DNA of 64,000 nucleotides from an uncultured Acidobacteriaceae bacterium. Lineage in GTDB: Bacteria; Acidobacteriota; Terriglobia; Terriglobales; Acidobacteriaceae. This document shows positions 28,378-46,405 of this stretch, one piece after another. Below the pieces are notes generated by a model. It made no database searches. It had not been told where the DNA came from and was given only the letters and a program-made list of their open reading frames with translations. Location of the stretch: assembly GCA_963775365.1 (NCBI GenBank), contig CAVZJL010000054.1, forward strand, positions 41,151 to 105,150, read 5' to 3'. The position numbers and the translations under genes are program-made. Each line of letters begins with the position of its first letter. Position 1 is the stretch's first letter.

Positions 28378-28701
28378 ATGTCGGCAGCAATGAAGGTGAA
28401 AGCGGACAAGCCGTTCGACGTGACCTGTCCCGATTGCGGGGCGATTTTGCGCGTCGACCCTGAAACCAGGGCGATCCTCTCGCACACTCCGGCTCCGCGC
28501 AAGCGGACCTTCGAGGACTTTGAAGCGGCTGCGAAGGCCATGCGCGCGCAGGATGAACGCAAAGAAGATATCTTCCGGCAGTCGGTAGAGGCTGAAAAGA
28601 ATAAGCAGCAATTGTTCGATAAGCGATTCGAGGAAGCGTTGCGCAAGGCGAAGGAGACTCCCGACGAGGGTCGCCCTCTGCGTGAATTCGATCTCGATTA
28701 A
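28378..28701 (+). CDS. hypothetical protein (single CxxC, Lys/Glu-rich tail)
   Basis: Start moved to ATG 28378 to avoid overlap with bshC; DVTCPDCGAILRV then a charged helical tail. Confidence 0.4.
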   Translation: MSAAMKVKADKPFDVTCPDCGAILRVDPETRAILSHTPAPRKRTFEDFEAAAKAMRAQDERKEDIFRQSVEAEKNKQQLFDKRFEEALRKAKETPDEGRPLREFDLD

Positions 28702-28784
28702 TCAGCTTACTCCGACCTTGGAAGCTGATTAAAGGCATTTTCTCCGCATCTAAACACAGCAGTTCATGCGAAAGAGAGACACCG

Positions 28785-29165
28785 ATGGGGATCACACACA
28801 TTCCGCAGCAAGTGGCATCCAGCGTTCAAGACGCAGCCGAAAGCCTCAAGTACCAAGGAAACCGGCTTCTGGACAACGGCTGGGATAAGAACTGGGTGCG
28901 CACGGTGGCCGCCGGGAGCCTCGTTACCGGAGCGGTCCTGCTGGCCACAGGAAAGCGCAAGGCTGGTTTAGCCGTGGCTGCTGCCGGTACTGTCTTCGCG
29001 TTGCTGGAAGACCCTGAAGGCGTCAAGAAAACCTGGAACAGCCTCCCCGACTATCTCGAGAGTGGGCACAGTCTCCTGGGCCGCTTCGAAAAGTTCGTGG
29101 GAGAGCTTACGACGCAGGGCGAGAAACTCCGCAGCGTAGTCGAAAAAGCTGTGCGCCAAGCCTAG
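28785..29165 (+). CDS. hypothetical membrane protein
   Basis: 126 aa; two hydrophobic segments VAAGSLVTGAVLLA and GLAVAAAGTVFALL. Confidence 0.4.
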   Translation: MGITHIPQQVASSVQDAAESLKYQGNRLLDNGWDKNWVRTVAAGSLVTGAVLLATGKRKAGLAVAAAGTVFALLEDPEGVKKTWNSLPDYLESGHSLLGRFEKFVGELTTQGEKLRSVVEKAVRQA

Positions 29166-29168
29166 ACC

Positions 29169-29501
29169 CTATCCAATCCCTAGTTGCTCGCGGGCTCTCT
29201 GGCTGATGCGGTCCGGTGTCCACGCCGGTTCCCAAACCAGGTTGACCACAGTTTCGCTGATCTCAGGAACGCCCGCCAGCCGGTTCCGCACCTGTTCGAT
29301 GATCGAGGCGTGAGCCGGGCAGCCCTGCGAAGTCATCGTCATGTCTACTTCCACACGCTGCCTGGGGAAGGCCCGCCGGGAGTTTGCGTCTGGAGTCAGT
29401 TTGACTGTGTAGATCAACCCCAGGTCCACGATATTCACCGGGATCTCAGGATCGTAGCAATCTCTCAGGGCAGCCATGACATCGTCTTCGGTAAGCGCCA
29501 T
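29169..29501 (-). CDS. DUF59/MIP18-family Fe-S assembly protein (SufT/PaaD-like)
   Basis: 110 aa; CYDPEIPVNIVDLGLIY and MTSQGCPA motifs. Confidence 0.8.
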   Translation of the reverse strand: MALTEDDVMAALRDCYDPEIPVNIVDLGLIYTVKLTPDANSRRAFPRQRVEVDMTMTSQGCPAHASIIEQVRNRLAGVPEISETVVNLVWEPAWTPDRISQRAREQLGIG

Positions 29502-29540
29502 CTTTCTCTCTTCCTAGAAGGAAGGCCCCTAAGGGCCCCG

Positions 29541-29710
29541 ACAACGAAGGGCACGGCTTCAGTCGTGCCGTCAATGCCATATGCAAGAAAACGGCTTTGC
29601 TGCTGAGGCACCTCTTTACAAGACGCCACGGACGAAAGCACCTTCAGGGGCTAAAAGCCCTCATCAGTCTTGAATCAGTGTGGCACGGCTGAACCCGTGC
29701 CCTTCGTTGA
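29541..29710. repeat. inverted pair of REP-like hairpin repeats
   Basis: acaacgaagggcacggcttcagtcgtgcc (29541-29569) and its near reverse complement ggcacggctgaacccgtgcccttcgttga (29682-29710). Confidence 0.65.
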
Positions 29711-29753
29711 GCGGGCTGTTGAGCAGCTTACTGGCCATGTGAGGCGTTGAGAC

Positions 29754-30662
29754 TCAGTGTTTGCGCTCCACGAGATATCGCGCCACTGCCTTCAGGCGAC
29801 CGGCGCGCTCTCCATACCCGGCTAACTGCGAAAATGCCTCTTCGACCAACCGCTCAGCGTCCTGAATGCTCTGGGCCACTCCATAGACTGCGGGCCACGT
29901 AGCCTTCTCGCTGGCGACATCTTTGCCTGCAGTTTTTCCAAGTTGCGAAGAATCCTGGGTCACGTCCAGCACATCGTCCATGATTTGAAAGGCCAGCCCC
30001 GCTTTGCGTCCAAATTCCCGCAGCCGCTCGATATCATTGGCGGAACCGCAGGCGTAAATCCCACCCGCCATCAGGCTGACGCGAATCAACGCTCCGGTCT
30101 TAGCACGATGGATGCGTTCCACTAGCTCCGGGGTTGGCTTATGTTCCTCGGCTTCGAGGTCCATGACCTGGCCGCCGATCATGCCCTCGACCGTTCCTGT
30201 GGCCTGCGCGATCGAGCGCACGATCTCCACCGTTTGCGGTGCGGGGCACTGCATGCCGGCCAGCACCTCGTAGGCCTGCGTCTGCAGCGCGTCCCCGGCA
30301 AGGATGGCAATCGCCTCGCCAAACGCTACGTGGCAGGTCGGCTTGCCGCGGCGCAGATCATCGTTATCCAGTGCAGGGAGGTCATCATGGATCAGGGAAT
30401 AGGTGTGCAGCATTTCTATTGCCGCGCCCAGCTCATCCACTCCCTTGGGAAACTGAGCGGAGCCTGCGATCATTCTTGCCGCTTCCATGCACAGCACCGG
30501 CCGGAGCCGCTTGCCGCCGGCAAAAACACTGTGCCGCATGGCGCGGTGAATCGAGACCGGCGCCTGATCCGGACCTGGCAATAGACGATCCAGGGCGTGA
30601 TCGATAAGCTCCGCGCCGCTGTCCAGAATCTCGCGCACATTTTGCTGCATTTGGGTAATCAT
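29754..30662 (-). CDS. polyprenyl diphosphate synthase (FPP/GGPP synthase, IspA family)
   Basis: Start at ATG 30662 (ATGA overlap with upstream gene); FARM LIHDDLPALDNDDLRRG and SARM FQIMDDVLD. Confidence 0.85.
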   Translation of the reverse strand: MITQMQQNVREILDSGAELIDHALDRLLPGPDQAPVSIHRAMRHSVFAGGKRLRPVLCMEAARMIAGSAQFPKGVDELGAAIEMLHTYSLIHDDLPALDNDDLRRGKPTCHVAFGEAIAILAGDALQTQAYEVLAGMQCPAPQTVEIVRSIAQATGTVEGMIGGQVMDLEAEEHKPTPELVERIHRAKTGALIRVSLMAGGIYACGSANDIERLREFGRKAGLAFQIMDDVLDVTQDSSQLGKTAGKDVASEKATWPAVYGVAQSIQDAERLVEEAFSQLAGYGERAGRLKAVARYLVERKH

Positions 30663-32365
30663 ACGCGACGGTGAACATGCCCTTTGCGCTCCCGCATAGC
30701 CAGCACCGCGAGCATCAGCAGTGCTATCGCGGAGATTACCCGCCCGGCCGTGACGTCTCGCGTGGAGGTCCACTGCACCTCCAAAGTATGACTTCCAGCG
30801 TTCATCAGGACTGTCATTAACCCATCTTGACGTAAAGGCCGGCTGTTCGCGGATTGCCCATCAACGGTTACTCGCCATGACGGATAGTCCATCAAACGCA
30901 GCACCACATAACCTCTCTCCGGGGTTACGACGCTCACTCGCCAATGTTCCCCGTTCTGTCGTCGGACCACCATTTGCGCCGCTATGCTGCCGGGGTCTCC
31001 GGCACGCCATTCGGGATTGTCTGTCGCAGTATCGTCCGCTGTGTCGTCCTGCGCGGAACGCAGTACCCGCACCAGGGGCAGGTGCTGCTGCACTGCCGCA
31101 TTATCGACACCGACCGGCGTGTACTCGTCCGTACCTTCGGTGCCTTGTCCGAGGTGGAACCCGTTGAGCTGCGCCGCGACTGCATCCTCATCGTCGCAGG
31201 GCTGAAAGAAGAGCAGGGATGAACCGACGGGCATGGCGGCAATCAGGATGCCGGCCCCGACAACCCGCCACCTGGGTTGGCGAACAACGGCCATGCCTGC
31301 AAGCACGCAGCCGACCACGCTCAGTGCCATCAACCAACGCCAGGGAAACTGCAGAAACTTCATGTGGGGCGCATATTTCCAGATCACCTCGCTGACCGGC
31401 AATTGCAGTAACAGAATGACCGGCAGCATGGCCGTGAGAACATTCCTGGTCGATCCGTCCGCTCGCCTTTTCCACGCCAGGTACGCCGCGATCGAAGCCC
31501 CGGTAAATTCCACAACCAGGATCCATGATGCCGTCCGCAATACCTGGTCATGAAAGGCGTTTGCCGTGTGCGCAAACAGAAAACTGTCCTCGACGCGCAT
31601 TCCGGGATTAATCGCGCGCTCGATCTGCACCCACCGCTGCTCGAATGCCGCGGGCACGATGTAGAAGGCGGCCAGTCCCAACCCCAGCGCCATTCCTCCT
31701 GCGGCCCGCAGAGCCGGCCAAGGCCTTCCTTCCGCTATCCACATTCCCAATGCGAGGACTGCCAGCAGATAACTGCCAATCACGGCGGCGGGGGAATTGG
31801 TGAGCCAGAGAGCCGCTACAGACAGGCCAAGCAGTGAAACCGATTCGCGCCTTCGAAGAGCGAACAGCACCATCAAGGGAAGCCATGCAGCCGCCAGAAG
31901 CTCGCCAAACGCCGAGCGCTCATAGGCCACAAACATTGCATAGGGGTTGGCGATGTAGAGACACGCAGCAAACGTTGCTGCTTCCGGCGACGCCCACTCC
32001 CGTGCCACCAGGTACATGCTGCCTCCGGCGGCCAGCAGCGCCAGCAATACGAAAAGCACCGGAGCCGCATCCCACGAGGTCACCATCCCTAACAGGGCGC
32101 CCAGCAGCCAGGATGCCGGGGGATAAAAGATCAACCGTGGCTCCCCTGCCCCATAGTTCGCATCCTGCACCCAGTGGGGATAAACGAGACCTGCATGCCA
32201 GGCCCGCGCAACCTCCATCCAGGAGAGCAGATGGAAATCGAAATCGTGGCCGCAGGAATTTCCTCGCACGAACAGCACGCAAGCCGCAAGCAATGCCGTG
32301 CATGTGATCAGAAGGGCCGGCATTCTACGCGGGACGGCCGGAAGGGATTCGGTGTTGGTCGTCAA
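30659..32365 (-). CDS. large polytopic membrane protein (possible GT-C/PTPS-related family)
   Basis: 568 aa; about a dozen hydrophobic segments then a soluble C-terminal domain; family assignment tentative. Confidence 0.5.
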   Translation of the reverse strand: MTTNTESLPAVPRRMPALLITCTALLAACVLFVRGNSCGHDFDFHLLSWMEVARAWHAGLVYPHWVQDANYGAGEPRLIFYPPASWLLGALLGMVTSWDAAPVLFVLLALLAAGGSMYLVAREWASPEAATFAACLYIANPYAMFVAYERSAFGELLAAAWLPLMVLFALRRRESVSLLGLSVAALWLTNSPAAVIGSYLLAVLALGMWIAEGRPWPALRAAGGMALGLGLAAFYIVPAAFEQRWVQIERAINPGMRVEDSFLFAHTANAFHDQVLRTASWILVVEFTGASIAAYLAWKRRADGSTRNVLTAMLPVILLLQLPVSEVIWKYAPHMKFLQFPWRWLMALSVVGCVLAGMAVVRQPRWRVVGAGILIAAMPVGSSLLFFQPCDDEDAVAAQLNGFHLGQGTEGTDEYTPVGVDNAAVQQHLPLVRVLRSAQDDTADDTATDNPEWRAGDPGSIAAQMVVRRQNGEHWRVSVVTPERGYVVLRLMDYPSWRVTVDGQSANSRPLRQDGLMTVLMNAGSHTLEVQWTSTRDVTAGRVISAIALLMLAVLAMRERKGHVHRRV

Positions 32366-34812
32366 GGCACCAGTCGCAGAGTATGCGCGGTTGACGCGGT
32401 CACGGCCGCATCCGTGAAGGGCATGGGAAACGTTTTGCCGCTATACCAGGCCGGCCACTGGTCCAGGAAATTCGGGCTGAGTGGGTCGCCGGACTCACCC
32501 ATCACAATGTTCTCCGTCGATCCGTCCACATTGCTCCAGTCCACCGTGAGGCGTTGGCTTGCGCCCAATAGTCCGCGCACGTGGTTCAGTGTGGTCTCGT
32601 CTCCCCAAAGCTGGTGGGGCCCGGTGCTGGTCCAACTGCGGAAAAAGGGCAGCATCCCATAGAGTGGGTGCTGCACATCGATCACGTGCTGGCTGCCATA
32701 CGTCCATTTCTTAAGTGATACCGGGGCGTGATGGTCGATCATGCCTTGATGTACCGCTGCGGCGATCAGGTCATCCCAGCTCTTGTATTTGGCCGGCAGC
32801 CATTCCGGCGGCGCCTTCTCCACCATCTCTTCCTGCACAAAGTTTTTGCTTTGCCAATCGTAGAGCTGCCAGTCTGACCCCAGTTTAGGCTGCAAGACAA
32901 GTGGCCATAGCGCTTGCTTGGCTGCATCCACGATCTCCGCTGCCACTGAATCCTTAGTGATGACTCCATCCCAGGTGCGCATCAGGTCTGCAGCCTGCCG
33001 CAATTGCACGTCCGGAGCAGTAGCACGGTCAATGGAATATGCAAAGCGCTGTGCCAGCTCCCGGTCCACGTCGGAGTAGGTATCCATCTGCAACGCGAGC
33101 ATATCCGCAGGTGTGAGACGGGAGTGACTCGAGAGCCATTTCCAGATGCGCTCGTTGCGGTAGGGTGCGTCCCAGTTGAGTGCAAGCGGGTAAGGATATC
33201 CATCGGGGCTGACGCGTGAATTGGCGGTTGCGACAATGCCGTTGTCGGGATCCAGCACGCTCGGAAGTTCGTTGAAGGGAACGTAGCCTTGCCACTCGTG
33301 TTCGCTATCGGCTGCGGTTCCGGTCTCCACAATCGGGACCCCGCTCAGACCGGCCGGCCGCAATGGAAATAGCCCCACTGCCTGGTAGCCGATGTGGCCC
33401 TGGTCATCGGCATAAGCCATATTCTGCGTCGGCCCCCACCATTGGCTCACCGCCTGACGGAACTCTGTCCAATTGCTGGCGGCGTCTACAGCCTGCAGCG
33501 GTAAACCCCCGAGTGGCGTCGTGTACAGAGTCCATTTGAGCGAAAGCATGCGCGTCTCGTGAGGCAACAGGGGAGTGATCACCGGCCCGTGGTCAGTGGT
33601 CTCCACGTCGAGCAGCACATCCTGCCCGAAGCGCACATGGATGTGTTCCCGGTCATGCTCTGGCTGGCGCCATCCCCTGCCCGCCCAGTACTCGCCCTGA
33701 GCATTCGTCTTTTCCACGTACACATCCTGCACATCCCCGTTGAGCGTGGTGTAACCCCAGGAAATGTGTTCGTTGTGGCCCTCGATGATGAGGGGTATCC
33801 CCGGGGTCGTTACCCCAGCCACGTGGAAACTGCCCGCTTGCAGGTCTTCCTCATGCCAGATATCAGGAATGGAATGCTCCAGGTGCATGTCATTGGAGAG
33901 CATCGCCTTTCCGCTGGCCGTGTGGGCTCCGTTAACAGCCCATTCGTTGGAGCCCCGCCGGCAGCTATCGCAAGGGTCCGACCCCAGGTTGAGAATTTCC
34001 CGCAGGCGCAATAGGTCCTGCAGGCTTGATTGCGACTCGTCGAGGGGTACCTGGGGGATATTTTGCTGTGGAGCGGTCAAGTCGGGCATCGACTGCGTAG
34101 GCGGGTGGTCGCGCCAGGTCGTCGTAGGGTATAGCTCGGCGACCAGGTTGGGCGCCAACTTTGCCTCCACCTGGGCACGCTCCAGTTTCCAGGGGTAAAG
34201 GGTATCCAGCCGCGCCACCATGTTGAGGGCCACCAGCCAGGAATCCACCGGTTGCCAGGGCCGGGGCTTGTAGTCCAACAGCCGGAATTCGGCCGGCAGG
34301 TTGTCCTGATGGGCGCTGATGTAGGCGTTAACCCCCCGGGCAAACGCTTCAAAAAGGTGTTTCTGGTCTTCCGGCATGGTGGCGGTCAGGTGTTCCGCAG
34401 CGGGCCGGATCTGCAATACCCGTTGCAGCTTATCGTGCTCCACCACGCTGGAACCCAGGAGCTCAGCCAGTTCGCCGGCAGCGAAACGGCGGGCCATATC
34501 CATCTGCCAGAGGCGGTCTTGGGCCACCACGAATCCCTGCGCTTCGAGCAGGTCGTCCATGTTCGCCGCCTGGATATGGGGAACGCCATGCACGTCACGC
34601 CGCACCACAACCGGTGCGGAGAGGCCCGGCAGTTGCAGTTGACCGTCGAGCTGAGGCGCCTGCTCGCGCATGGCCTTCTTGAGCCACGAGATGCTGGCGA
34701 CGATCCCTAGTGACGCTACGATTAACAGGCTGATTACCAGGCCGGCGATTATTCTCGCCAGCAACGGCAACCTTCGCCGCCGAGCGGCGCCCACCTCGAC
34801 CTTGGCCATCAT
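32362..34812 (-). CDS. penicillin acylase family protein (Ntn hydrolase; possible acyl-homoserine-lactone/beta-lactam acylase)
   Basis: 816 aa; signal anchor, nucleophile context RRGSNEWAVNGAHTASG, size typical of the family. Confidence 0.85.
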   Translation of the reverse strand: MMAKVEVGAARRRRLPLLARIIAGLVISLLIVASLGIVASISWLKKAMREQAPQLDGQLQLPGLSAPVVVRRDVHGVPHIQAANMDDLLEAQGFVVAQDRLWQMDMARRFAAGELAELLGSSVVEHDKLQRVLQIRPAAEHLTATMPEDQKHLFEAFARGVNAYISAHQDNLPAEFRLLDYKPRPWQPVDSWLVALNMVARLDTLYPWKLERAQVEAKLAPNLVAELYPTTTWRDHPPTQSMPDLTAPQQNIPQVPLDESQSSLQDLLRLREILNLGSDPCDSCRRGSNEWAVNGAHTASGKAMLSNDMHLEHSIPDIWHEEDLQAGSFHVAGVTTPGIPLIIEGHNEHISWGYTTLNGDVQDVYVEKTNAQGEYWAGRGWRQPEHDREHIHVRFGQDVLLDVETTDHGPVITPLLPHETRMLSLKWTLYTTPLGGLPLQAVDAASNWTEFRQAVSQWWGPTQNMAYADDQGHIGYQAVGLFPLRPAGLSGVPIVETGTAADSEHEWQGYVPFNELPSVLDPDNGIVATANSRVSPDGYPYPLALNWDAPYRNERIWKWLSSHSRLTPADMLALQMDTYSDVDRELAQRFAYSIDRATAPDVQLRQAADLMRTWDGVITKDSVAAEIVDAAKQALWPLVLQPKLGSDWQLYDWQSKNFVQEEMVEKAPPEWLPAKYKSWDDLIAAAVHQGMIDHHAPVSLKKWTYGSQHVIDVQHPLYGMLPFFRSWTSTGPHQLWGDETTLNHVRGLLGASQRLTVDWSNVDGSTENIVMGESGDPLSPNFLDQWPAWYSGKTFPMPFTDAAVTASTAHTLRLVP

Positions 34813-35045
34813 CTTGCGCCCATTGTCTCACTGCTGGGCGGTTTTCTGCGGCGGTAGCTTGACAGGTTGGCGGTGGGCGGCAATCCTAGTCATTCGTCAA
34901 TACCCGGATTTCCTGACCTGGCCTGCGTTGGCGAAGTTCATGCGGCTTTCCTTAATGAAAGCCGCACACGCGGTCGTATCCAGCGCAGCGTACAGGAAAT
35001 CCGGGGCAAGCGCTTTGTCCGTTTCCGAGAGAGGAACATAACTGT

Positions 35046-36029
35046 TTGAAGGTTCGCGTTTTCTATCACGACCGGTGCTTTGATGGAGCATGTTCCGCTT
35101 CGCTCTTCATGCGTTTTCACCGCGAATGCATCCGCTCGGATGCGCACTACGACTATCACGGACTGGTGCATCGCGCGGGAGCACTCTTTGACGAGTCTGA
35201 TTTTACCGGCGACGAAAATGCTATCGTCGACTTCAAGTACAGCGCTTCACCGCGCATAACTTGGTGGTTTGATCATCACCTGAGTGCCTTTCTAACCCCT
35301 GCCGATCAACAGCATTTTCTTCGTGAGCAGCTGAGCGGCGACACCCGCCATTTCTACGACCCCAAATATACTTCCTGCACCAGCTTTATCGCCCACATCG
35401 CTCGAACCCGCTTCGGCTTTGACCCCGCGCCGGTTGCCGAATTGATCCGCTGGGCCGACATCGTGGATGGCGCTCTCTACGAGAGCCCGAAGGCCGCGGT
35501 CGAAATGGCGGAGCCGGCCATGAAACTTACCATGGTGATCGAATCGAGCCAAGATCCGGCTTTCATCCCGAAGCTGATTCCGTTGCTCACGACCATGAGT
35601 CTGAGCGAAGTTCTGGAGCAGGCCTTTGTCGCCAAACTTCTGCCGCCGCTGATCGAGAGGCATCACGAGTCGCTGAAAATGATTGGTGAGCGCACCGAGC
35701 TGGTCGATGGCACGCTTTACTTCGACATTACCGATCAGCCCTTTGAGGGCTACAACAAATTTGTTCCTTACTTCCTGCATCCCGACGCCACGTACAGCGT
35801 GGGCCTGAGCAAGTCCAGCTTTCGCACCAAGGTTGCCGTCGGATCGAATCCGTGGACCAAGGCAAAGCCCGAGCAGATGATTAACCTGGCACAAATCTGT
35901 GAGCGCTATGGGGGCGGAGGGCATGCCCGTGTGGGTGCAATTTCCTTCCCGCCCGACCAGGGTGACCGCGCCCGTGTCGCCGCCGCCGAAATCGTAAGCG
36001 AGCTTCGCGCCCACAATCCCTTTCCCTAG
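35046..36029 (+). CDS. DHH family phosphoesterase
   Basis: 327 aa (TTG start); WWFDHHLS and YGGGGHARVGA (DHHA1-like) motifs. Confidence 0.65.
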   Translation: MKVRVFYHDRCFDGACSASLFMRFHRECIRSDAHYDYHGLVHRAGALFDESDFTGDENAIVDFKYSASPRITWWFDHHLSAFLTPADQQHFLREQLSGDTRHFYDPKYTSCTSFIAHIARTRFGFDPAPVAELIRWADIVDGALYESPKAAVEMAEPAMKLTMVIESSQDPAFIPKLIPLLTTMSLSEVLEQAFVAKLLPPLIERHHESLKMIGERTELVDGTLYFDITDQPFEGYNKFVPYFLHPDATYSVGLSKSSFRTKVAVGSNPWTKAKPEQMINLAQICERYGGGGHARVGAISFPPDQGDRARVAAAEIVSELRAHNPFP

Positions 36030-36180
36030 CCCATGGGAGGCAAATCTGTGACGCGGATGAATGGAGGCCGTAGGCGTGGCACCCGTCTCATCCCGTCACG
36101 GATTTGGGATCCGGTGAGGGGGGCTGCATTGGCCGCGGTATCACCCGCACGATAGACTCCATGAGCAGGAGCACCTACGA

Positions 36181-36363
36181 ATGAAGCTTTATCGCACCGC
36201 CACCGGCTACGTAGTCGAGCAGCAGGATCGCTTCTATGCAGTTGAGGACACGTCCTGGGATCAACTGCTGATGCGCGACGATCTCGAAGCTCATCTGACC
36301 AAGACTCTGCCGCAGCAAAAGCCGATCGAAGCGGGCTCCTTTGCTGGGATCGATCTGCTGGCC
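36181..36363 (+). pseudogene. 5' fragment of an unidentified gene (possibly FAH family), cut off at the compositional junction
   Basis: MKLYRTATGYVVEQQDRFYAVEDTSWDQLLMRDDLEAHLTKTLPQQKPIEAGSFAGIDLLA reads like a real N-terminus; beyond ~36363 the ORF runs antisense through high-GC DNA. Confidence 0.35.
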
Positions 36364-37604
36364 GTTGCTGAACATCAGGTGCCGTGGCTGGTAGACGCGG
36401 AAGTGCCGGGCCATGTGGATGTAGTTCGTGCCCATGTCGGTGGTGACTGTGGCGTCGTCGTTCAGGTGCTCGCGAAGCTTCAGGACCAGCCAGGCGGGGT
36501 TCAGCCCGGCGGGGCCGTGCGCACCGCGCGCCGCCGCCTGGTCGATGGCGGCCAGCGCCTGCCGCTGGGCCTGGACCTCGGCGGCGAACTCGGCGGTCAG
36601 CACAAAATCCTTGAGCTGCGGCGAGCGCCCGGACGGTGGCGGCGACGTCGCCGCGCAGTTCCATGGCGGGCTGGTAGTGATTGTCGATCTGGTCCGGCAG
36701 CGAGTCGATGTGGATCACGGTCCGGGCGGGGTCGGCGTTCCACAGCCCGGGGTCGTATTCCACCGGGTCGTAGCCGATCGTGATCAGCACATCGGCTTGC
36801 CCGATCACGACGTCGCCGGGCTGGTTCTCGAACAGCCCGACCCGGCCGACGTAGCACGATTCCAGCTCTCGGGAGACGACTCCGGCCGCCTGGAAGGTCT
36901 CCGTCACCGGCAGCGAGGTGGCCTCAAGCAGGGCGCGCACCGCCTGGCAGGAGTCCACGTCGGCACCGCGCACGCCCACCAGGAGCACCGGCCGGGCCGC
37001 GGCCCGGATGATGGCACCAGCCCTTTCCACCTCGCTCGCTGGCGCCGGCCTCAGCCAGCCGACGGGCGCCGGGCGCTGATCCTGGCATCGGTGGCAGCGG
37101 CCATGACGTCGTTGGCCAGCACCAGGGCCGCCACGCCGCGAGGCTCCGTCATTGCGGCGCGGAACGCGTTGGCTACCGCTTCCGGGACCGTTTCGGGGTC
37201 GGTGACCTCTGCCGTGTACTTGGTGACCGCCGACAGCAGCGTCGCCACGTTCATTGACTGATGGGTGCGCTTCAGCCGGTCGGCGAGCGGCACCGCGCCG
37301 CAGAGCGCGACGACCGGGTCCCCTTCGGTGTTGGCCGTGACCAGGCCCGTTGTCAGGTTCGCCGTCCCTGCGCCAGGTAACCAGGACCACCCCGGGCGTG
37401 CCGGTCAGCCGGCCGATGGCCGCGGCCATGAACGCCGCGTTCTGCTCGTGCCGGCACACGATGACCTCGGGGCCGCCGTCAGCCAGCACGTCGAAGACCT
37501 CATCGACCTTGGCGCCCGGGATGCCGAAGATATAGCGGACGCCGTGCGCCGCGACGCCTTCGACGACCCGCTGCGCGCTACGCACCGGGAGTATCAGAAG
37601 TCAT
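36355..37604 (-). pseudogene. acetolactate synthase-like ThDP enzyme (AlsS-type), frameshifted and 3'-truncated at the junction
   Basis: ATG 37604 with AAGGAG 7 nt upstream; [26 protein letters not shown]; further pieces in other frames (37051..37293, 36175..36603) end with TTDMGTNYIHMARHFRVYQPRHLMFSNGQQ, after which the family sequence is lost. Confidence 0.75.
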
Positions 37605-37835
37605 AGCTTGGCTCCTTGCTGGTAGGCAGCCGATCCGGTCACTGAAGCCCCCGGGCGAACCGCGGTCAGACTCGCTCATGGAACCGGCCGGCATCACCCG
37701 CACCGGATGAATTCGCGAGCGCCCGGCCTGGTCGATAACCCGGGTCTTATCGATCGTTCGAAGACAAGTCTTCGACTCAGGAGTCACAGACAGTAACAAT
37801 TGCTGTCGGGACGCCTGATCGAAGGGGGACTCAAG

Positions 37836-39606
37836 ATGGGCAGCACCGTTAGCGAGACTGCGGCTTCGGGCGCGACCTCGGCGGGCGCACCGCTGACCGA
37901 CGGATATCACCTGCGTGGTCGAGGCGCTGAAGCTCAACGACGTCGACACCATCTACGGCGTGGTCGGCATCCCGATCACCGACCTGGCCCGGGTCGCCCA
38001 GACATCCGGTATCCGCTACATCGGCTTCCGGCACGAAAGCGAGCGCGGGCACGCGGCGGCGGCGGCCGGGTTCTTGACGCAAGAAGCCAGGCATCTGCCT
38101 GACGGTCTCGGCGCCGGGCTTCCTCAACGGCCTGGTGGCGCTGGCGAACGCGACCATCAATTGCTTCCCGATGGTGCAGATCTCCGGATCGAGCGAGCGG
38201 CACATCGTCGACCTCAAGCGCGGCGACTACGAGGAGCTCGACCAGATGGCGGCGGCGCGAACCGTTCGTCAAGGCCGCCTATCGGGTCGAACCGGGTCGA
38301 GGACATCGGCCGCGGCATGGCCCGGGCGATCCGCACCGCGGTGTCGGGGCGCCCGGGCGGCGTGTACCTCGACATCCCTGCCGCCGTGCTCGGCCAGGTC
38401 ATCGACGCGACAGCCGGCGCCGCGTCGCTGTGGCGGGTGATCGACCCGGCGCCACGCCAGCTCCCCGCGCCTGAGGCGGTGGACCGCGCGATCGAGCTTG
38501 CTCGCCGGCGCGCAGCGCCCGCTGGTGGTGCTGGGCAAGGGCGCCGCCTACGCCCAGGCGGACAAGCAGATCCGGGCGTTCATCGAGGCCACCGGCATGC
38601 CGTTCCTGCCGATGTCGATGGCCAAGGGACTGCTGCCCGACGACCACCCGCAGTCGGTGGCCGCCGCCCGGTCGCTGGCGTTGCGCGACGCCGATGTCGT
38701 CATGCTCGTCGGCGCCCGGCTGAACTGGCTGCTCGGCCATGGCGAGGCGCCGCAATGGAACCCCGACGCGAAGTTCATCCAGGTCGACATCGAACCCGAC
38801 CGAGTTGGACAGCAACCAGCCCATCGCGGCGCCGCTGGTGGGCGACATCGGCTCGGTGATGGACGCGCTGATCGAGCGCGACCAGCCCGGGCGAGATCAG
38901 CGCGCCGACGCGAGTGGCGCGACGAGCTCGCCGTCACGCTCGGCGCAGAACGCCGCCAAGATGCGCAGCGGCTGGCGGCCGATCCGCACCCGATGCGTTC
39001 TACAGCGCGCTGCGCGCCGATCCGCGACGTGCTGCGCGACATGCCCGGACGCCTATGTCGTCAACGAGGGCGCCAACGCGCTGGACATCGCCCGCAACGT
39101 GATCGACATGCAGGTGCCGCGGCACCGGCTGGACAGCGGCACCTGGGGCGTCATGGGCATCGGCATGGGCTATGCGATCGCCGCCGCCGTCGAGACCGGC
39201 GCGCCGGTGGTGGCGATCGAAGGCGACAGCGCATTCGGGTTCAGCGGCATGGAGATCGAGACGATCTGCCGCTACCAGCTGCCCGTCACGGTGGTCGATC
39301 TTCAACAACGGCGGCGTCTACCGTGGCGACGACGTCAACGACGCGTCCGCCGGATCCCGCGCCCACGGTGCTGGACCCGGCGCCCATCACGAGCGGCTGA
39401 TCGAGGCGTTCGGCGGTGCCGGCTATCACGTCACGACGCCCGCCGAGCTGAGCACGGCGCTGCAGAAGGCACTCGCTTCGCATGCCGGCGCTCATCGACT
39501 CGTGCTCGACCCCAGCGCTGGCACCGAGAGCGGCCACATCGCCAACCTCAACCCCAAGAGCGCGGCCACCGCACCGACCACGCCCGCCCAGCGGCCGGCC
39601 AGCTGA
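37836..39606 (+). pseudogene. oxc: oxalyl-CoA decarboxylase, about ten or more frame changes
   Basis: ATG 37836; LTDGYHL / VVEALKLNDVDTIYGVVGIPITDLARVAQTSGIRYIGFRHE / [38 protein letters not shown] / [55 protein letters not shown] / [18 protein letters not shown], spread over all three frames. Confidence 0.8.
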
Positions 39607-39711
39607 CGCCCGCAGCCCCCGGCCTGACCGGGGTCGCCCCGGGCGTGCCCGCCGTAGAGTAGCGAGGTGCCCGAGAGTTGTCCGAGTGTCCGAGAGTAAG
39701 GAGTAACCACA

Positions 39712-40179
39712 GTGGCTGCACGCCCGCCTGTACCCCCTTTCACCCGGGAGACGGCAATCGAGAAGGTCCGCCTCATCGAGGATGCCTGGAATCTCAGGGA
39801 CCCCGAACGGCTCGCCCTCGGTTACACGGAGGATTCTCGCTGGCGTAACCGGGCCGAATTCGCGACGGGACGTGCCGAGGTCGTTCAGCTCCTGAAACGC
39901 AAGTGGGTCGGGGAACTCGACTACCGGCTGATTAAGGAGCTGTGGACATTCGGCGGGAACCGCATCGCCGTTCGGTTCGCCTATGAGTGTCATGATGACT
40001 CGCTCAACTGGTTCCGTTCGTATGGCAACGAGAACTGGGAGTTCGACGACGACGGCCTGATGCGCACGAGGTACGCCAGCATCAACGACCTGCCGATCAA
40101 GGAATCCGAGCGTAAGTTCCACTGGCCCCTCGGCCGTCGCCCCGATGATCACCCGAGCCTGTCCGACCTCGGCTTCTGA
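39712..40179 (+). CDS. DUF1348 (NTF2-like) protein
   Basis: 155 aa, intact; [43 protein letters not shown] is the pattern I associate with DUF1348. Confidence 0.7.
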
Positions 40180-40181
40180 AA

Positions 40182-40231
40182 GGCCGTGCCCGGCCATGCC
40201 CGGCCATGCCAGGCCGTGCCCGGCCTGCCGG
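40182..40231. repeat. 10-nt GC-rich tandem repeat (about 4.5 units)
   Basis: ggccgtgccc ggccatgccc ggccatgcca ggccgtgccc ggcctgccgg. Confidence 0.7.
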
Positions 40232-40297
40232 CCCCCACATGTGGCAGTCGACTCTCGACGACCACCAATGACTATCCGGTTTATTGTGAAGCATTTT

Positions 40298-40349
40298 CCC
40301 GTTGTGAAGGATTTTCCACGCTGCAACGTGGCAAATCTTACATAACCGG
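40298..40349. repeat. AT-rich extended palindrome, copy 1 (core 40303..40344)
   Basis: tgtgaaggattttccacgctgcaacgtggcaaatcttacata; 39/42 identical to 54220..54261. Confidence 0.75.
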
Positions 40350-40527
40350 GTAATTCTCCATGATAATCGCGGCCAGGCCCGGGCCTCTCGTGGCTCGGGA
40401 CTGCATTGTGGCACCAGGGCTGCCTGTGGTACCAGGCGATTCCAGCGGGGGGGCACCGGCCAGGGGTGGAGCGGTGAACGGAGGGGTAGCTCCTGCCAGG
40501 AGACCTAGGCGGAGGAGGAGACAAGCG

Positions 40528-40885
40528 GTGAGCGACCCCGTAAGTCCTGAAGCGACCGTGCGGAAGTTTTTCGACTGCTACACCAACGGCCGCCCGGAGG
40601 ATTTCGACGAGTGCGTTGCGGCCCGACTATGTCGATTACGGCCACGAGCCGCCGGGGATAGGCCCCGGTGGAGCGCGCGATGACTATGAGCAAGCGGTCA
40701 AGCTGGTCGGCGGGATCATCCGCTACACGATCGACGCGCTCGTCATCGACGGCGAGATGGTGGCGACCGCCTGGACCGGCACGCTGCCCAGCGGCGCCAG
40801 CGTTAAGGGGCTGAGCCTGTTCCGGGTCACCGGGGGCCTGCTGCGGTCAACGCAGCACCAGCTGATAGGCGACATACCCACGTGA
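40528..40885 (+). pseudogene. SnoaL-like/ester-cyclase-like small protein, one frameshift
   Basis: GTG 40528 preceded by GGAGGAGGAG; VSDPVSPEATVRKFFDCYTNGRPEDFDECVA then, after one extra base near 40620, PDYVDYGHEPPGIGPGGARDDYEQAVKLVGG...GLSLFRVTGGLL. Confidence 0.6.
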
Positions 40886-40919
40886 GTAACCAGGCCGGGT
40901 AAACGGCGGGCCGCGGACC

Positions 40920-43041
40920 TCAGGTCAGCGGCATCGAGGACCAGGTCGACCACTCGAACTGATCGAACTGGTCGCCTGGGACTCGCTCGTAGTGCACGTA
41001 CTGGCTCAACCCGTCGGTGGTAATGGCGACGAGGACGCCGACGCGGCCGATGATGGCGCTGGCCGAGATGGTGGCGACGCGCCCGGGCGGGCTCGGTACC
41101 TTGGTCCACTCCGACCAGACGGACGCCCCGCCCACGAGCTGCGGCCGCGAGGCGCTGAGCCAGATGCGGCCGCCCCGTGACAGCGCGAAGACCTCGAACT
41201 TGTTCCGCAGCGAGGAGCAGGTGACGACCTCGACGGGGAAGCGCCGCCCGCCCACCTCTCGCCAGCCGGACCAGCTAGTGCCCCGGACGCGGGACTTGCA
41301 GAAGACGCCGCTGGCGACGCTGATCAGCGCCAGGTCGTTGCCGTTGCTGCACGCGGCGATCGCGGTAGCCTTGCGCTCGCCAGGCCCGGGAATCGCCGGC
41401 CCGAAGGAGTGGTCGAATCCCTCGTGCCAGATGCCGCCCGCCACGTCCAGGATGAACAGCTCAGGGTTGCCCGCACCGGCACTCCCCGCGGGGCCGGCGG
41501 AAATGGCGACGTCCGCCACCGCGGGACGGAAGGCGGGCAGGGGATGCATCGGCGCCCAGTTCCCCTGAGCGCCGATCCACGGGTGCCCTTCGACGACGCT
41601 CATGACGTACGCGCCGCTCGCCGTGAGCGCCGATACCTCACCAGCGGGTGACGACGTGTTCTCCCAGTCACTCCAGGTCCAGTTGGCCCCGCCGGTGGAC
41701 GCGTCCCGGTAGGCGCGGGTCCGGATCCCGCCGTACTCGTTCAGGGCGAAGACTTGCAGCAGGCCGGGAACCGGCCACCCGCAGGCGAGGAGCGGCACGG
41801 GCGGCGCGGCCGACGGATGCGGCGGCTGGGACGGGTGGGAAGGCTGCTCGGGTTGCTCCTGCTGGGGGACGCCCGCGATCGGCCCCGACGGAGCAGGGCC
41901 GGGAGGAAGAGGCAGCGCCGCGGCCGGCTCGGCAACCAGCGCTGGCAGCAGTGCCGGCACCGGGACTGACGCCGGCGCCAGCAGCGAGCGCCCCGGTCGG
42001 AGGCCGGCTTGGTCTCGATGAGCGACTCGGACGCGTCGGCTGATTCAGCCTCGGGCGCCGACGGGGCCTGGGCGGCCGGCGGCTCGGCGGCCACCGAATC
42101 CGGCGGGGCCAGCGCCGGGGGCGCGGCAACCGGAGACACGGCAACCGGGGCCGCCGCGCGCGGCGCGGGCGGGGCGGGCGAGCCCAGCTGGCTAAAGAGC
42201 GTTTCCTTGTAGAGGTCGGTGCTGATCTGGGCAAGGGCAGCGCGGACATCGCCGGCCTTGCGCGGCCGGTCGGCGGCGTCCTTGGCGAGGAGCGCGACGA
42301 CAAGGTCATTGAGGGGCTCCGGGACCTCCGGGTTGAGGTCATGCGCCGGCACGGGCGACTCGGTGAGATGCTGGTGCATGACGACGGGCAGCCCCGGGCC
42401 GATGAACGGGGGCTGGCCGGTCAGCATCTCGTGCAGGATGCAGCCCAGCGCGTACAGGTCCACGCTGGCGCTCGCGCCGGCCCCAGCCACTGCTCCGGCG
42501 CCATGTAGGCGGGAGTGCCGATGACTTCCCCGGTCATCGAGAGGGACGACGTCGAGTTGAGGTCCCGGGCGAGGCCGAAGTCGCAGACCTTCAGCCGGTC
42601 CCCGACCTGGATGAAGATGTTGGCGGGCTTCAGGTCACGGTGCACGATCCCCGTCGCGTGCGCGGCGATCAGCGCGTCGGCCAGCTGGATGCCGAAGTCC
42701 AGCGCACGGCTCACCACCAGCCCCTCGGGAAAGGCGGCCATGACCTTGCCCAGGTCCTCGCCGCGCAGCAGCTCAGTGACGATGAACATCTGGCCATCGT
42801 GCTCGTCGTAGTCGTAGACCACCGTGATGCACGCGTGCTGCAGGCTGGCGGCCGTGGCGGCCTCCCGGTGGAACCGCTTGCGCATCGTCTTGTCCGGGTC
42901 GGCGTCGCGCAGGACCTTGATGGCCACCGCGCGGCTCAGCTTCAGGTCCTGCCCACGCCAGACCTCGCCGGAGGCCCCGCGCCCCAGACGCTCATCAAGC
43001 CGGTACCTGCCGGTAAGGACGTTCTCCGACTCCACACGCAC
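40920..43041 (-). pseudogene. Ser/Thr protein kinase with Pro/Ala linker and C-terminal W-rich beta-propeller-like domain, at least two frameshifts
   Basis: GTG 43041; GRGASGEVW, AIK, HRDLKPANI, DFG, GTPAYMAPEQW; CC run near 42487 breaks the frame before AGAGASASVDLYALGCILHEMLTG; second break in the 41960-42060 linker; C-terminal ORF 40920..41960. Confidence 0.8.
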
Positions 43042-43218
43042 ACGTTACCTGTCCCCAACGTCGTCAATGGCAACGTCCGCCAGAAGAGGCGACAATTCTG
43101 CCTGTGCTCCCGAATTGCTAACAACTCTTCCGCTTGGGCACTGGCGTATTTATCGGCCTCGAAGTTACCGGGCTGGTGGCGGCCGACCGCTGCGGGTAGC
43201 GTAGAGGGGACAAACTCA

Positions 43219-43391
43219 AACACGGGAGCTCGGGCGAACCGGGCTGAGAGGGCGGCTAGCACGCCGGCGCGAGCACCGCGCCAGTCAGCGGCACAGTGCA
43301 GCGACACAGTCCAGCGACACAGTCCAGCGACACAGTGCAGCGCCGCCGACCGTCGGAACCTGTCCGGGTAATGCCGGCGTAGGAAGGCGTG
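43219..43391 (+). promoter_or_regulatory. TPP (THI-box) riboswitch
   Basis: cacgggagctcgggcgaaccgggCTGAGAgggcggc ... gccgccgaccgtcggAACCTGTCCGGGTAATGCCGGCGTAGGAAGGcgtg immediately before ATG 43394; the 3' P1 strand covers the GGAAGG ribosome-binding site. Confidence 0.85.
43286..43342. repeat. 13-nt tandem repeat (about 4.4 units) inside the riboswitch P3 loop
   Basis: cagcggcacagtg cagcgacacagtc cagcgacacagtc cagcgacacagtg cagcg. Confidence 0.8.
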
Positions 43392-43393
43392 CC

Positions 43394-44893
43394 ATGGCTG
43401 CCGACGCGCACCGCCAGAAGTCAGACCAGCACAGCTCCGACCAGCACGGCCCTGGCCAGCACAGCTCCGTCCAGCACACCTCTGGCCAGGCCACGCCGGC
43501 CAGTGCGGCGCCAGCCAGTGCGACGCCAGCCAATGCCACTCCGCCCGGTGCCACTCCGCAGTTCACCATCATCGCGGCCGGCCGGCGCGCCGAGGCCCCC
43601 AAGACCCTCGCGGAGCCGGTCCCGCAGCCGCTTACCCTGCTTGACCAGTTCGGCCTCTGGAGCAACCTGGGCGTCAGCCTGCTTGGCTTTACCGGGGCGC
43701 TGTTCGTCCTGCGGCCCTACGGGGCCGGGACTCCGGCGCTGAGCCTCGCGGCCGCGCTCACCGCGATCGTCGTTGGCACCCTCATTGGTACCGTCCCCGT
43801 CGCCCTGGCCGGCGTCCAGGGCGCGCGGACCGGCGCTCCGGCCATGGTCTTGCTCCGCGGCCTGTTCGGTGCCAGGCTCTCCTACCTGCCGACCGCGATG
43901 AACATCGTCCAGTGCTTCGGCTGGGGCATCTTCGAGCTGGTCACGATCGCGACCGCCGCGCACACCATCGCACCGCGGCTGCCCAGGCCCGGCTACGTCC
44001 TGATCGCGGGCGTCGTCACCGGCCTGCTGACGATCCACCCGCTCGGCGCGATCAGGACGCTGCGCCGATACGCCACGGCGGCCGTGATCATCGTGGGCCT
44101 CTACATCCTGGTCCAGTTGCTCCGGCAGCCCTTGCCGAGCCTCACGGCCGGCACCTGGTCTGGCTTCTGGGCCGCCACTGACACCGTGGTCGGCGTCGGC
44201 ATCTCCTTCGTCCCGCTCGCCGCGGACTACACCCGGCACTCGCGAAGCCCCCGGGAGGCCGCGGCCGGCGCGCTCATCGGCTACAGCACCACCCAGGTCC
44301 TCTGCTACGCGCTTGGCCTGCTCGCCCTGCTGACGGTCGCCAGGCACAGCGGGGACATCTTCGGTGCGTTCATCGCGCTGCCGTTCGGCTCGCTGGCGTT
44401 CGCCGTCCTCGCCGCCCGCGAGCTCGACCAGTCCTTCGCCGACGTCTACTCGACGGCCATGTCCGTCCAGAACCTTAAGCCCCATTGGGACCGCCGAGTC
44501 CTGGCCGTCGTGATCACGGCGCTGGCCACGGCGGGCGCGCTCTGGCTGAACATCGCGGATTACGAGAACTTCCTCACCCTCATTGGCTCCATTTTCGTCC
44601 CGCTGAGCGCGGTGCTCGTGGTGGACTACTTCATCGTCTCGAAGGGCGACTGGGACCTTTCGCAGCGGGCGGGCACCCGCTGGCGGTCGCTCATCCCCTG
44701 GGCTGCGGGCTTCGTCGTATACCAGCTCATCAATCCCGGCTACGTGACCTGGTGGGTCGCCCTCTGGAGGAGGGTCGACAACGGCATCGGCTTCACCCCG
44801 GCTAGCTGGATGTCCGCCTCTATCTTGTCGTTCGTCACCGCTGGCCTCCTCACCCTGCTTGTCTCGCTCCCGGGGGGCCGGAAGCGGGCCTGA
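43394..44893 (+). CDS. NCS1-family permease, probably thiamine-precursor (HMP, CytX-like) transporter
   Basis: 499 aa, intact; about 12 hydrophobic segments, LLDQFGLWSNLGVSLLGF start of core; TPP riboswitch upstream; low-complexity N-terminal extension DQHSSDQHGPGQHSSVQHTSGQ. Confidence 0.75.
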   Translation: MAADAHRQKSDQHSSDQHGPGQHSSVQHTSGQATPASAAPASATPANATPPGATPQFTIIAAGRRAEAPKTLAEPVPQPLTLLDQFGLWSNLGVSLLGFTGALFVLRPYGAGTPALSLAAALTAIVVGTLIGTVPVALAGVQGARTGAPAMVLLRGLFGARLSYLPTAMNIVQCFGWGIFELVTIATAAHTIAPRLPRPGYVLIAGVVTGLLTIHPLGAIRTLRRYATAAVIIVGLYILVQLLRQPLPSLTAGTWSGFWAATDTVVGVGISFVPLAADYTRHSRSPREAAAGALIGYSTTQVLCYALGLLALLTVARHSGDIFGAFIALPFGSLAFAVLAARELDQSFADVYSTAMSVQNLKPHWDRRVLAVVITALATAGALWLNIADYENFLTLIGSIFVPLSAVLVVDYFIVSKGDWDLSQRAGTRWRSLIPWAAGFVVYQLINPGYVTWWVALWRRVDNGIGFTPASWMSASILSFVTAGLLTLLVSLPGGRKRA

Positions 44894-45400
44894 TCGAAGC
44901 CGCCATCGGCCGCCACCGTTGTTATTGAGTGATGTTGGTGTAGCCCTGCCGCATACCTCCGGTGTCTGGCTACGGGGATGACGGCAGGCTGCCACGGGAC
45001 TTTCTGAGCGACCCGGCGGTGAAGCAGTCATTTCGCCCGCATGCGGCAGCCGCCGAATTGTCGAGCGATGCTGACGTTGCCCTTCCTCCCTGCCGCTTAC
45101 CTCTTGCGTTGCAGGGGCACCTTTGATCTCTGTGGTCGCTGCTTGCGCTGGAGTACCGGGCAGGCTGGTCTTCCGGGGCGGCCTTGCGCCCGACTTTCCT
45201 GTCGTGGTCATGATCGTGGGTCTTTAGTAGCGCTGGGACGCTACGAAAGACACACGATCATGGAAATACAGGCCGGGAAGCCCGGCCCCGCGGTGAATTT
45301 CCCCGTCCAGGCCTGCCGCGCACCGGACGTGGTACGGCTGCGCATTCCCGGGGTGGCTGTTGTTGCCGGCGAGCCGCTGTTGCCGGCGAGCCGCGAAAGG

Positions 45401-46405
45401 CTAGTACTGCCGCACGGGGACGGGGACGGGGGCGAACGCGCTGGCGGCGGCGGTGATCTGCTCCGCTGGCTTGTCGATCATCCGGTCGGCGATCGTGATC
45501 GGCGTCCCGTAGAGCTGGCAGGACTTCTCGAACCTGCGCCCGGCGCCATTCCCTTGCAGCGCGCGCAGTGAGGCCTGCGGATCGGCGGGCACGAAGGCGA
45601 CGATCGTCGTGGCCTGCCTGCGCCCGCGCCGGGAACCCTGGAGCGGGATCAGTCGCACTTCGGCCAGTTCCGGCCAGGGGAGCGTGTAGCGGTATCGCGG
45701 CATGTGCACGCCGTCCGCGTCCAGCGTCAGGATCGGGCGTCGCAGCCCCCAGCGCAGCACGCTGATCGCGCCCAGCACTGCCAGCGCGATCAGGAAGACG
45801 CTGAACAACACCAGAACCAGGCGTTCCGCCGCAATGGTATTGTCCGCCAGCGAGCCATAGGCCAGGCCAAGGCACCCCAGCCCGAACAGCAGCCCCAGCT
45901 GCCGCGAGACCCGGCCCCGGTTGTACTTCACGGTGAGCTCCTGCCCGGCGGGCGCCTGTTGCCCCCGGATCGTCGCCGTGCCCTGCGCGCCGGCCGGGGC
46001 GCCATAGTCGGCCGGGGCGCCATAGCCGCCGGCCGGGGCGCCATAGCCGGCCGGGGCCAGCGCCATCTTGTTGGCCATCTCCATCTTCGACAGCAAGCTC
46101 ACGCGAAGCATGGGCGCCAGAACGATGGCAAATACCAGCAGCAGCGCGATAACCGTCGCGAGGCCGGTATTTACCCGGGGTGACCAGGCCCCGATGGAAG
46201 CGCCGGCCGCGGCGGCCAGCCCCGCCAGGAGGGCCACCACCCATTTCGTTCGGCGCCGGGCCCGGGCCACTGCGTGCCGGGCGTACCGTTCGGCCACGGC
46301 GGCCACGCGAGGGTCGGGGTGCGGCCGTAGTTGCCGGGCGTTGCGTTGAACCGCGCGCCTGGTCTGCGCGTCAAGCCCGCGCCAATCGCCTCGAGGAGTC
46401 GTCAC
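45401..46405 (-). CDS. hypothetical membrane protein with C-terminal PH-like region
   Basis: 334 aa; four hydrophobic segments, GYGAPAGGYGAPADYGAPAG repeat loop; high GC3 in this frame versus the overlapping 45258..46244 ORF. Confidence 0.5.
   Translation of the reverse strand: MTTPRGDWRGLDAQTRRAVQRNARQLRPHPDPRVAAVAERYARHAVARARRRTKWVVALLAGLAAAAGASIGAWSPRVNTGLATVIALLLVFAIVLAPMLRVSLLSKMEMANKMALAPAGYGAPAGGYGAPADYGAPAGAQGTATIRGQQAPAGQELTVKYNRGRVSRQLGLLFGLGCLGLAYGSLADNTIAAERLVLVLFSVFLIALAVLGAISVLRWGLRRPILTLDADGVHMPRYRYTLPWPELAEVRLIPLQGSRRGRRQATTIVAFVPADPQASLRALQGNGAGRRFEKSCQLYGTPITIADRMIDKPAEQITAAASAFAPVPVPVRQY

Follow-up and report, generated by a model that had tools for sequence, protein, structure and literature searches.

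Contigs that join sequences of several phyla are documented products of long-read metagenome assembly by metaFlye, metaMDBG and hifiasm-meta, as are stretches with no more than one supporting read and indels that lack support, and such chimeras are recognized by sudden shifts in GC content, coverage and gene-level taxonomy (bioRxiv 10.1101/2025.04.22.649783). Here we describe a junction of similar appearance in a 64,000-nucleotide stretch of DNA, hereafter the window, from contig CAVZJL010000054.1 of an uncultured Acidobacteriaceae bacterium (assembly GCA_963775365.1, positions 41,151 to 105,150), at which a rightward FAH-family gene and a leftward acetolactate synthase gene (alsS) are both cut. 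As in the published long-read chimeras, GC content and gene-level taxonomy shift at one point in the contig, and frame-breaking indels are found. Unlike the published cases, which were diagnosed by read clipping and coverage change, the present one is known from its sequence, and its assembler and sequencing platform are probable attributions. We conclude, at a probability of about 0.88, that the junction is an inter-phylum mis-join from long-read metagenome assembly that was kept in a deposited contig of 108,403 bp, and that it is not a biological event.

Two other kinds of system also offer themselves for comparison. Chimeric long reads arise when two molecules are ligated in library preparation, or when two molecules are read as one. 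The present junction is like these in being a blunt, homology-free join of unrelated molecules, with about single-read accuracy beside the join, but it is unlike what is expected of them in that its two parts are not separated by any remnant of an adapter. With a genomic island it shares a large block of foreign composition that abuts native sequence and interrupts a gene; unlike a genomic island, it came with no integrase, tRNA or attachment (att) target, direct repeat or mobility gene in our searches, the donor end lies inside a gene, and neither the second boundary nor the other half of the target gene is in the window.

Results

Position of the break

The break was located between positions 36353 and 36354 by nucleotide alignment to relatives of each half (Table 1). 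On the left, homology to the Acidobacteriaceae contigs L004 to L006 runs to ...GGGATCGA and ends at 36353. Directly after the final ATCGA the relatives read GAAGCTCCTTCTGCCACCC or GAAGCTCCTTCTGCCACCCATCGGC (encoding EKLLLPPIG), where the window instead reads TCTGCTGGCCGTTGCTG; at the protein level, the FAH homologues P0001-P0005 go on ...LLAPIGTQEVWASGVTYY where the window fragment stops. On the right, homology starts at 36354: in a three-way DNA alignment (approximately 90% identical), the window tracks the actinobacterial contigs L002 and L003 through ...AGCAACGGCCAGCAGA (plus-strand 36354), after which divergence is total. The join is therefore blunt by the alignments to both sets of relatives, with zero bases common to the two lineages and nothing intervening.

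An earlier, sequence-only reading of this DNA had placed the break at 36355-36363, in the belief that the two readable parts shared the nine nucleotides ctgctggcc. Both points had to be corrected, since the relatives' alignments give 36353|36354 and the nine nucleotides belong to the right block alone, where they are the GQQ codons of the alsS motif SNGQQ; that they can be read as 'LLA' in the FAH frame is a coincidence. Microhomology through this 9-mer was considered and rejected, because relatives with 95-96% identical proteins read GAAGCTCC... after ATCGA and the left homology ends at 36353. That reading was right that the gene starting at 36181 is truncated, but put the loss of sense at about codon 61, whereas homology stops after 57 codons and 2 nucleotides. 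It was also right that the AlsS-like gene reading in from 37604 on the minus strand loses its ThDP (thiamine diphosphate)-binding C-terminal part; the frameshift indels within alsS and in the neighboring oxc-like gene, described below, go beyond what it had seen.

Table 1. Coordinates of the junction, the two blocks and the affected genes in the window (position 1 is the first nucleotide of the 64,000; empty cells, no value given)
Feature	Position	Strand	Evidence or details
Acidobacteriaceae block	1..36353		GC 58%, GC at third codon positions (GC3) 0.69; collinear with L001 and L004-L006
FAH-family gene, 5' fragment (57 codons + 2 nucleotides)	36181..36353	+	Homologues P0001-P0005; no FAA_hydrolase domain
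Blunt breakpoint between two genomes	36353..36354		Left and right homology limits; Markov change point
Chimeric 142-residue open reading frame (ORF) across the break	36175..36603	-	Exact product on public record (NCBI and ENA)
Trebonia-like (Streptosporangiales, Actinomycetota) block	36354..64000		GC 69.5%, GC3 0.90; collinear with L002/L003
Truncated alsS (catabolic acetolactate synthase), residues 1-418 of 557	36354..37604	-	PDB alignment, Pfam, P0006/P0007, three-way DNA alignment
Frameshift indels in alsS relative to L002/L003: 4 (+1, -2, -1, -2)	~37586, 37375, 37072, 36620		Three-way DNA alignment
Oxalyl-CoA decarboxylase-like (oxc) ThDP enzyme gene, divergent from alsS, split into three overlapping ORFs	37834..39630 (approximate)	+	Pfam, tblastn
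Frameshift indels in the oxc-like gene relative to L002/L003: ~18			Mostly single bases, often outside homopolymers
Error-dense stretch: ~22 frameshift indels in ~3.2 kb (~0.7%)	36354..39500		Alignment to L002/L003, frame tracking
Next 8 kb: 3-4 frameshift indels	39.7-47.7 kb		
Left of the break, 14 kb (~11.5 kb coding): 0 coding frameshift indels			Comparison with L004/L006; all indels intergenic

Switch in composition

Composition changes at the same place. GC content is 58.3% for positions 1-36355 and 69.5% for the remainder of the window, and a binary GC change-point model was most likely with the change at 36482 (log-likelihood gain, 427 nats). Strand-symmetric, third-order Markov models were trained away from the junction on 1-34000 and 39001-64000, and their cumulative log-likelihood ratio reached its maximum at 36354. 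When blocks of 2 kb were left out and scored one at a time, scores ranged from +66 to +154 nats for the 18 on the left, all of them left-like, and from -50 to -118 nats for the 14 on the right, all of them right-like. Since all 32 blocks were thus classified to their own side, the window contains a single junction and is no mosaic; no second junction was found in it by this test. GC at the three codon positions is 0.65/0.45/0.69 in the left block and 0.68/0.51/0.90 in the right block. All 24 rows reported by Tandem Repeats Finder fall in the right block, and a family of hairpins resembling repetitive extragenic palindromic (REP) elements, in three copies, is confined to the left. The comparison of the two halves, which the sequence-only reading had proposed, thus agrees with its impression that GC content, third-position bias and repeat families all switch here.

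Two lineages, each in its native gene order

Placed by homology, the left half is Acidobacteriaceae and the right half Trebonia-like, in keeping with the change from Acidobacteria-like to Actinobacteria-like gene content that had been noticed from the sequence.

The left block encodes, by Pfam, an exopolysaccharide cluster, PolX, BshC, a penicillin amidase, a 327-residue protein and the FAH gene fragment. Its positions 22.3-36.35 kb are collinear with L004 and L006 at about 88% nucleotide identity, and positions 26687-36324 with L001 at 73-93% amino acid identity; L006 is part of a 2.2-Mb contig. For the 816-residue penicillin amidase, proteins with 95-96% identity are present on ENA contigs as long as 2.2 Mb, and the NCBI-named matches, at 82-83% identity, are from 'Acidobacteriaceae bacterium'. 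Four related contigs (L001, L004, L005 and L006) keep the gene order of window positions 22-36 kb, the common order being NTP-transferase, PolX, NUDIX, BshC, polyprenyl synthase, a YfhO-like gene, the amidase and a protein of 327-366 residues. Beyond the point of the break, these relatives carry a complete FAH gene, a 183-residue gene (absent from L005), flavin reductase, HPPD, phenylalanine hydroxylase, PhoU and sulfite reductase. By tblastn, the relatives' genes past the break (the rest of FAH, flavin reductase, HPPD and so on) had no match anywhere in the window. The cut gene, to which JGI gives the name '2-dehydro-3-deoxy-D-arabinonate dehydratase', is intact in its orthologues: 279 residues with PF01557 in L004 and L006, and a 369-residue call with the same domain in L005. 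In the window only the first 57 codons are left, with no Pfam match, so that the FAA_hydrolase domain (PF01557) expected of a functional gene is lacking.

The REP-like family of this block (AACGAAGGGCAsGGCTTCAGTCGTGC) occurs at 12003-12031, at 29535-29571 and, inverted, at 29682-29716 (copies at 12003, 29543 and 29683). The two inverted copies stand 112 nucleotides apart in the intergenic region at 29.5-29.7 kb, where alignment to L006 also revealed insertions of 111 and 75 nucleotides.

The right block is ordinary actinobacterial chromosome. By Pfam it holds alsS, oxc, DUF1348, SnoaL, a Ser/Thr kinase, an NCS1 permease, coxD/E-like genes, an ArsR regulator, an MFS transporter and Kup, together with the cox M/S/L/F/G cluster of aerobic CO dehydrogenase. 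Positions 36355-47708 are collinear with L002, a JGI contig, and with L003, from a metagenome-assembled genome (MAG) of Trebonia sp. (GCA_036268095.1); nucleotide identity to L002 is about 86% over 36355-47760 and is greatest in the coding genes. Members of the protein clusters to which the right-block proteins belong bear the source names Trebonia sp. and Streptosporangiaceae.

When stitched across its frames, the window alsS matches residues 18-425 of a 572-residue AlsS of solved structure (PDB chain 9zgl_A, E = 1e-140), and it is 86% identical to the 557-residue proteins P0006 (JGI) and P0007 (Trebonia sp. MAG). The Pfam domains TPP_enzyme_N and TPP_enzyme_M are present, and TPP_enzyme_C, the ThDP-binding C-terminal domain, is absent; a functional gene would have all three in one open frame, and here the third is missing and the frame is broken four times. 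In both L002 and L003 the order is DUF1348, oxc-like ThDP enzyme, divergent alsS (intact at 557 residues), alsD, ferredoxin and P450. Neither the alsS sequence beyond residue 418 nor alsD, ferredoxin or P450 had a tblastn match in the window. The sequence-only reading had held that both flanking genes are left as fragments, and indeed FAH and alsS are each intact in the relatives of their own lineage, and the missing parts of both are not in the window.

Several local differences were seen among the actinobacterial sequences. Two genes of L003 (4675-7932) are lacking from L002 and from the window (39.6-39.7 kb): one of AMP-binding (acyl-CoA synthetase-like) type, which separates oxc from DUF1348, and a TetR gene immediately past DUF1348. 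These differences indicate that the region adjoining the break varies among related strains. The intergenic space between the DUF1348 and SnoaL genes contains a 213-nucleotide insertion relative to L002 (40290-40511), adjoined by a 10-nucleotide repeat of 5.4 copies (GGCCATGCCC) at 40182-40233. GC-rich short tandem arrays lie at 43282-43342, 43426-43536, 45989-46057 and 54045-54153 (13 nucleotides x 4.8; 15/30 nucleotides; 18-21 nucleotides x 3.5; and 22 nucleotides x 3.7 at 100% identity), and several of the arrays are insertions of 39-51 nucleotides relative to L002, some within coding sequence with the frame kept.

An indel-dense stretch on one side of the break

The first 3.2 kb of the actinobacterial side are dense in frameshift indels (Table 1), which are mostly single bases and in many cases lie outside homopolymers. 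They are concentrated in alsS and in the oxc-like gene, whose N, M and C domains are each detected by Pfam in a separate frame and whose tblastn matches run through frames 1, 2, 3 and 1. Further right of 39500, frameshift density is about 0.2-0.4 per kb. Frame tracking, which needs no reference, gave a similar profile: the frame switched 7 times between 36.4 and 39.3 kb and 5 times over the remaining 24 kb on the right, compared with no more than 4 times in all 36 kb of the left block. PMC13087279 quotes a per-base error of 1-2% for Oxford Nanopore Technologies sequencing; at about 0.7%, the indel density here is comparable in order of magnitude to the error of a single modern nanopore read. 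Read support in this stretch was probably very low, as judged from the indels.

Sporadic frameshifts were also seen elsewhere. The left-block gene rfbB (dTDP-glucose/GDP-mannose 4,6-dehydratase type; 21203-22299, plus strand) is present as two overlapping ORFs, one with positions 1-137 of the GDP_Man_Dehyd profile and the other with positions 165-332. The split profile indicates a frameshift near 21.7 kb, and thus the left block is not wholly free of indel errors. A coxL-like gene for the large subunit of aerobic CO dehydrogenase (58061-60495, minus strand) is split into ORFs of 636 and 222 residues that carry MoCoBD_2 positions 3-174 in one and 169-283 in the other, its cluster relatives being 796-797 residues long; here the split indicates a frameshift near 58.62 kb, which was flagged by the frame-tracking model as well. 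At 16737-18162 (plus strand), an amine-oxidase-like ORF covers no more of its profile than positions 2-60 of 443, and a second ORF, in a different frame, overlaps it downstream; frame tracking switches at 17540 and 18116, and the former is a candidate for a possible frameshift that is unconfirmed, the ORF at 17470-18162 having no Pfam match. The Ser/Thr kinase gene at 41890-42482 (minus strand) runs through three frames, with a 1-nucleotide deletion at about 42481 and a 14-nucleotide insertion at about 41995 relative to L002; the insertion could be a real difference instead of an error.

Split genes are found in two of the related ENA contigs too: penicillin amidase and FAH are each in two parts in L001 (6107-8552 and 10001-10760), as are sulfite reductase and PolX in L005 (1518-3213 and 19921-21664). 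The two, like L004 and L006, come from the ENA ERZ250395xx series, which is probably the source of the 108,403-bp contig described below as well, and their split genes suggest a general liability to indel errors in these assemblies. We infer an indel-prone long-read assembly, which fits the sporadic frameshifts, the split genes of L001 and L005 and the 'contig_N' naming. The Flye-style contig names in the sister assemblies, together with errors of the indel type, likewise point to the probable sequencing platform and assembler.

The junction lies in one deposited contig

Gene calling across the break yields an ORF of 142 residues that is made up of alsS residues as far as ...SNGQQ, followed by an out-of-frame antisense reading of the FAH fragment. 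By exact-sequence look-up, this product forms a singleton cluster, recorded from NCBI and ENA, on one contig of 108,403 bp. Exact matches were likewise obtained for four left-block and four right-block proteins, all labeled 'NCBI, ENA' and each on a contig of 108,403 bp. Since the spanning ORF and the exact proteins of both halves are recorded at this same length, the join lies inside one deposited contig and was not made by concatenation for the present scan.

Other look-ups were negative. A 54-mer across the junction had no exact match in the species-representative genome set, and a 100-mer with merged IUPAC codes that would match either flank was absent from that set and from the JGI metagenome set; neither collection therefore contains the source contig. 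None of the cluster members of alsD is recorded on a contig of 108,403 bp, all 6 having been read. For FAH, the 183-residue gene, flavin reductase, HPPD, phenylalanine hydroxylase and PhoU, none of the members listed is on a contig of that length, a result that is uninformative with 15 listed of 89-430.

Discussion

The window shows the features of a chimeric contig together: composition switches at a single point, taxonomy switches there with native synteny on each side, the cut genes are intact in relatives, and the junction stands in one record. We propose that an assembler joined the end of an Acidobacteriaceae contig end to end with Trebonia-like actinobacterial sequence, most likely on account of one chimeric read, of very few such reads, or of a mis-traversed edge in the assembly graph. 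A well-covered Acidobacteriaceae region would thereby have been linked to a Trebonia-like region, and the bridging 3.2 kb on the actinobacterial side may have been left at about single-read accuracy because almost no other reads followed that path. The two genes at the break would simply have been cut, and the gene caller would then have produced the 142-residue fusion ORF, which is without meaning. The sequence-only reading had considered a chimera of assembly or binning, or contigs concatenated without a spacer, to be the simplest account; the spanning ORF and the indels now support that account and narrow it to a mis-join inside the deposited contig.

The alternative that survives best, although it is unlikely, is that two separate contig ends were abutted without Ns at scaffolding, binning or submission. 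A blunt join with zero overlap would be expected of such a procedure, genes truncated on both sides resemble contig ends, and the error-dense 3.2 kb would suit a poorly covered contig end. However, low quality is seen at only one of the two supposed ends, the sister assemblies of the same ENA series have plain assembler contig names, and the spanning ORF is on a single contig of just 108,403 bp, a length that would not be expected of a concatenated bin. A join inside one deposited contig favors an assembler chimera over concatenation in a pipeline.

A real and recent transfer between phyla, in which at least 27.6 kb of Trebonia-like DNA entered the Acidobacteriaceae FAH-family gene through illegitimate end joining without microhomology, is very unlikely. 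It can be said for it that the junction is present in a long-read contig, so that at least one molecule-length read presumably had it, that end joining can be blunt, and that Acidobacteriaceae and Trebonia-like lineages occur in the same kind of metagenome series. The marks of integration were nevertheless absent, as the sequence-only reading had also reported for integrase, tRNA, ends of insertion sequences (IS) and direct repeats. The tRNA scan returned no tRNA or tmRNA gene in the window; the repeat search around the break returned no significant direct or inverted repeat, chance short repeats aside; and neither Pfam analysis of the scanned ORFs of either block nor the annotation of the syntenic relatives revealed integrase, recombinase, transposase or conjugation domains. 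An integrative element or genomic island would be expected to have an integrase at its boundary and a tRNA or att target with direct repeats; neither was found, and the second boundary lies outside the window. Insertion of an IS or transposon would similarly leave terminal inverted repeats, a target-site duplication and a transposase, none of which was found at the break; there is no inverted-repeat pair, and no sequence between the two homologies that could hold such an element. The remaining evidence also speaks against transfer: the donor end lies inside alsS, and the donor genes are ordinary chromosomal ones in the gene order native to Trebonia-like genomes; the donor sequence is unameliorated (GC3 of 0.90 vs 0.69, and about 86% nucleotide identity to L002); the locus is undisrupted in four related Acidobacteriaceae contigs; the 3' half of the FAH gene is missing from the following 27.6 kb by tblastn; and the many indels beside the break indicate that hardly any reads supported it. 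Were the molecule real all the same, of which we see very little chance, it would represent a very recent, unameliorated transfer that included the aerobic CO dehydrogenase cluster, in a rare cell caught by a single long read.

That alsS and oxc are genuine, decaying pseudogenes of the actinobacterium, with biological frameshifts, is scarcely credible: although nearly all of the frameshifts fall in these two adjacent genes, with DUF1348 just beyond and an AAA gene further right intact, the ratio of nonsynonymous to synonymous substitution rates (dN/dS) of the two is 0.29-0.37, in the range of neighboring genes that have no or few frameshifts (0.12-0.52), the reference frame has 0-1 nonsense codons despite 22 frameshifts, and the indels are mostly random single bases that end about 3.2 kb from the break regardless of gene function. 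Decay was rejected as their source on the ordinary dN/dS and the scarcity of nonsense codons, which mark the indels as consensus errors.

Some considerations weigh against the assembly mis-join that we prefer. Since a join by a long-read assembler requires a minimum of one read, a rare real molecule is conceivable. Low read support was deduced from the indels, and not observed in reads or coverage. The evidence for both halves being on one contig consists of the spanning ORF and the shared recorded length of 108,403 bp, and the other 44 kb of that contig lie outside the evidence. Moreover, good polishing of the actinobacterial side starts only at about 39.6 kb, a contrast that the mis-join leaves unexplained. 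Speculatively, the alsS-oxc segment might be duplicated on another contig of the same assembly that recruited the reads; or, just as speculatively, it might come from a minor strain, for which the differences between L002 and L003 in this neighborhood may be compared. As regards the chimeric read that the mis-join may have come from, no remnant of a sequencing adapter was detected at the join within 6 mismatches.

The biological import of the junction is small, since it is an artefact of a documented kind, and its value is for database hygiene. A public NCBI/ENA contig places at least 27.6 kb of actinobacterial genes, among them alsS, oxc, the cox/CO dehydrogenase cluster and Kup, in an acidobacterial context, or the reverse, and the mis-join has put a meaningless fusion protein of 142 residues and many frameshift fragments into the protein databases. 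Such joins can be located to the base without reads, by the use of lineage-specific relatives on both sides together with a local profile of indel density. The sequence-only reading correctly warned that inference from synteny is unsafe across this point; any inference about synteny, horizontal transfer, pangenome content or metabolic reconstruction that is drawn across 36353/36354 would be wrong.

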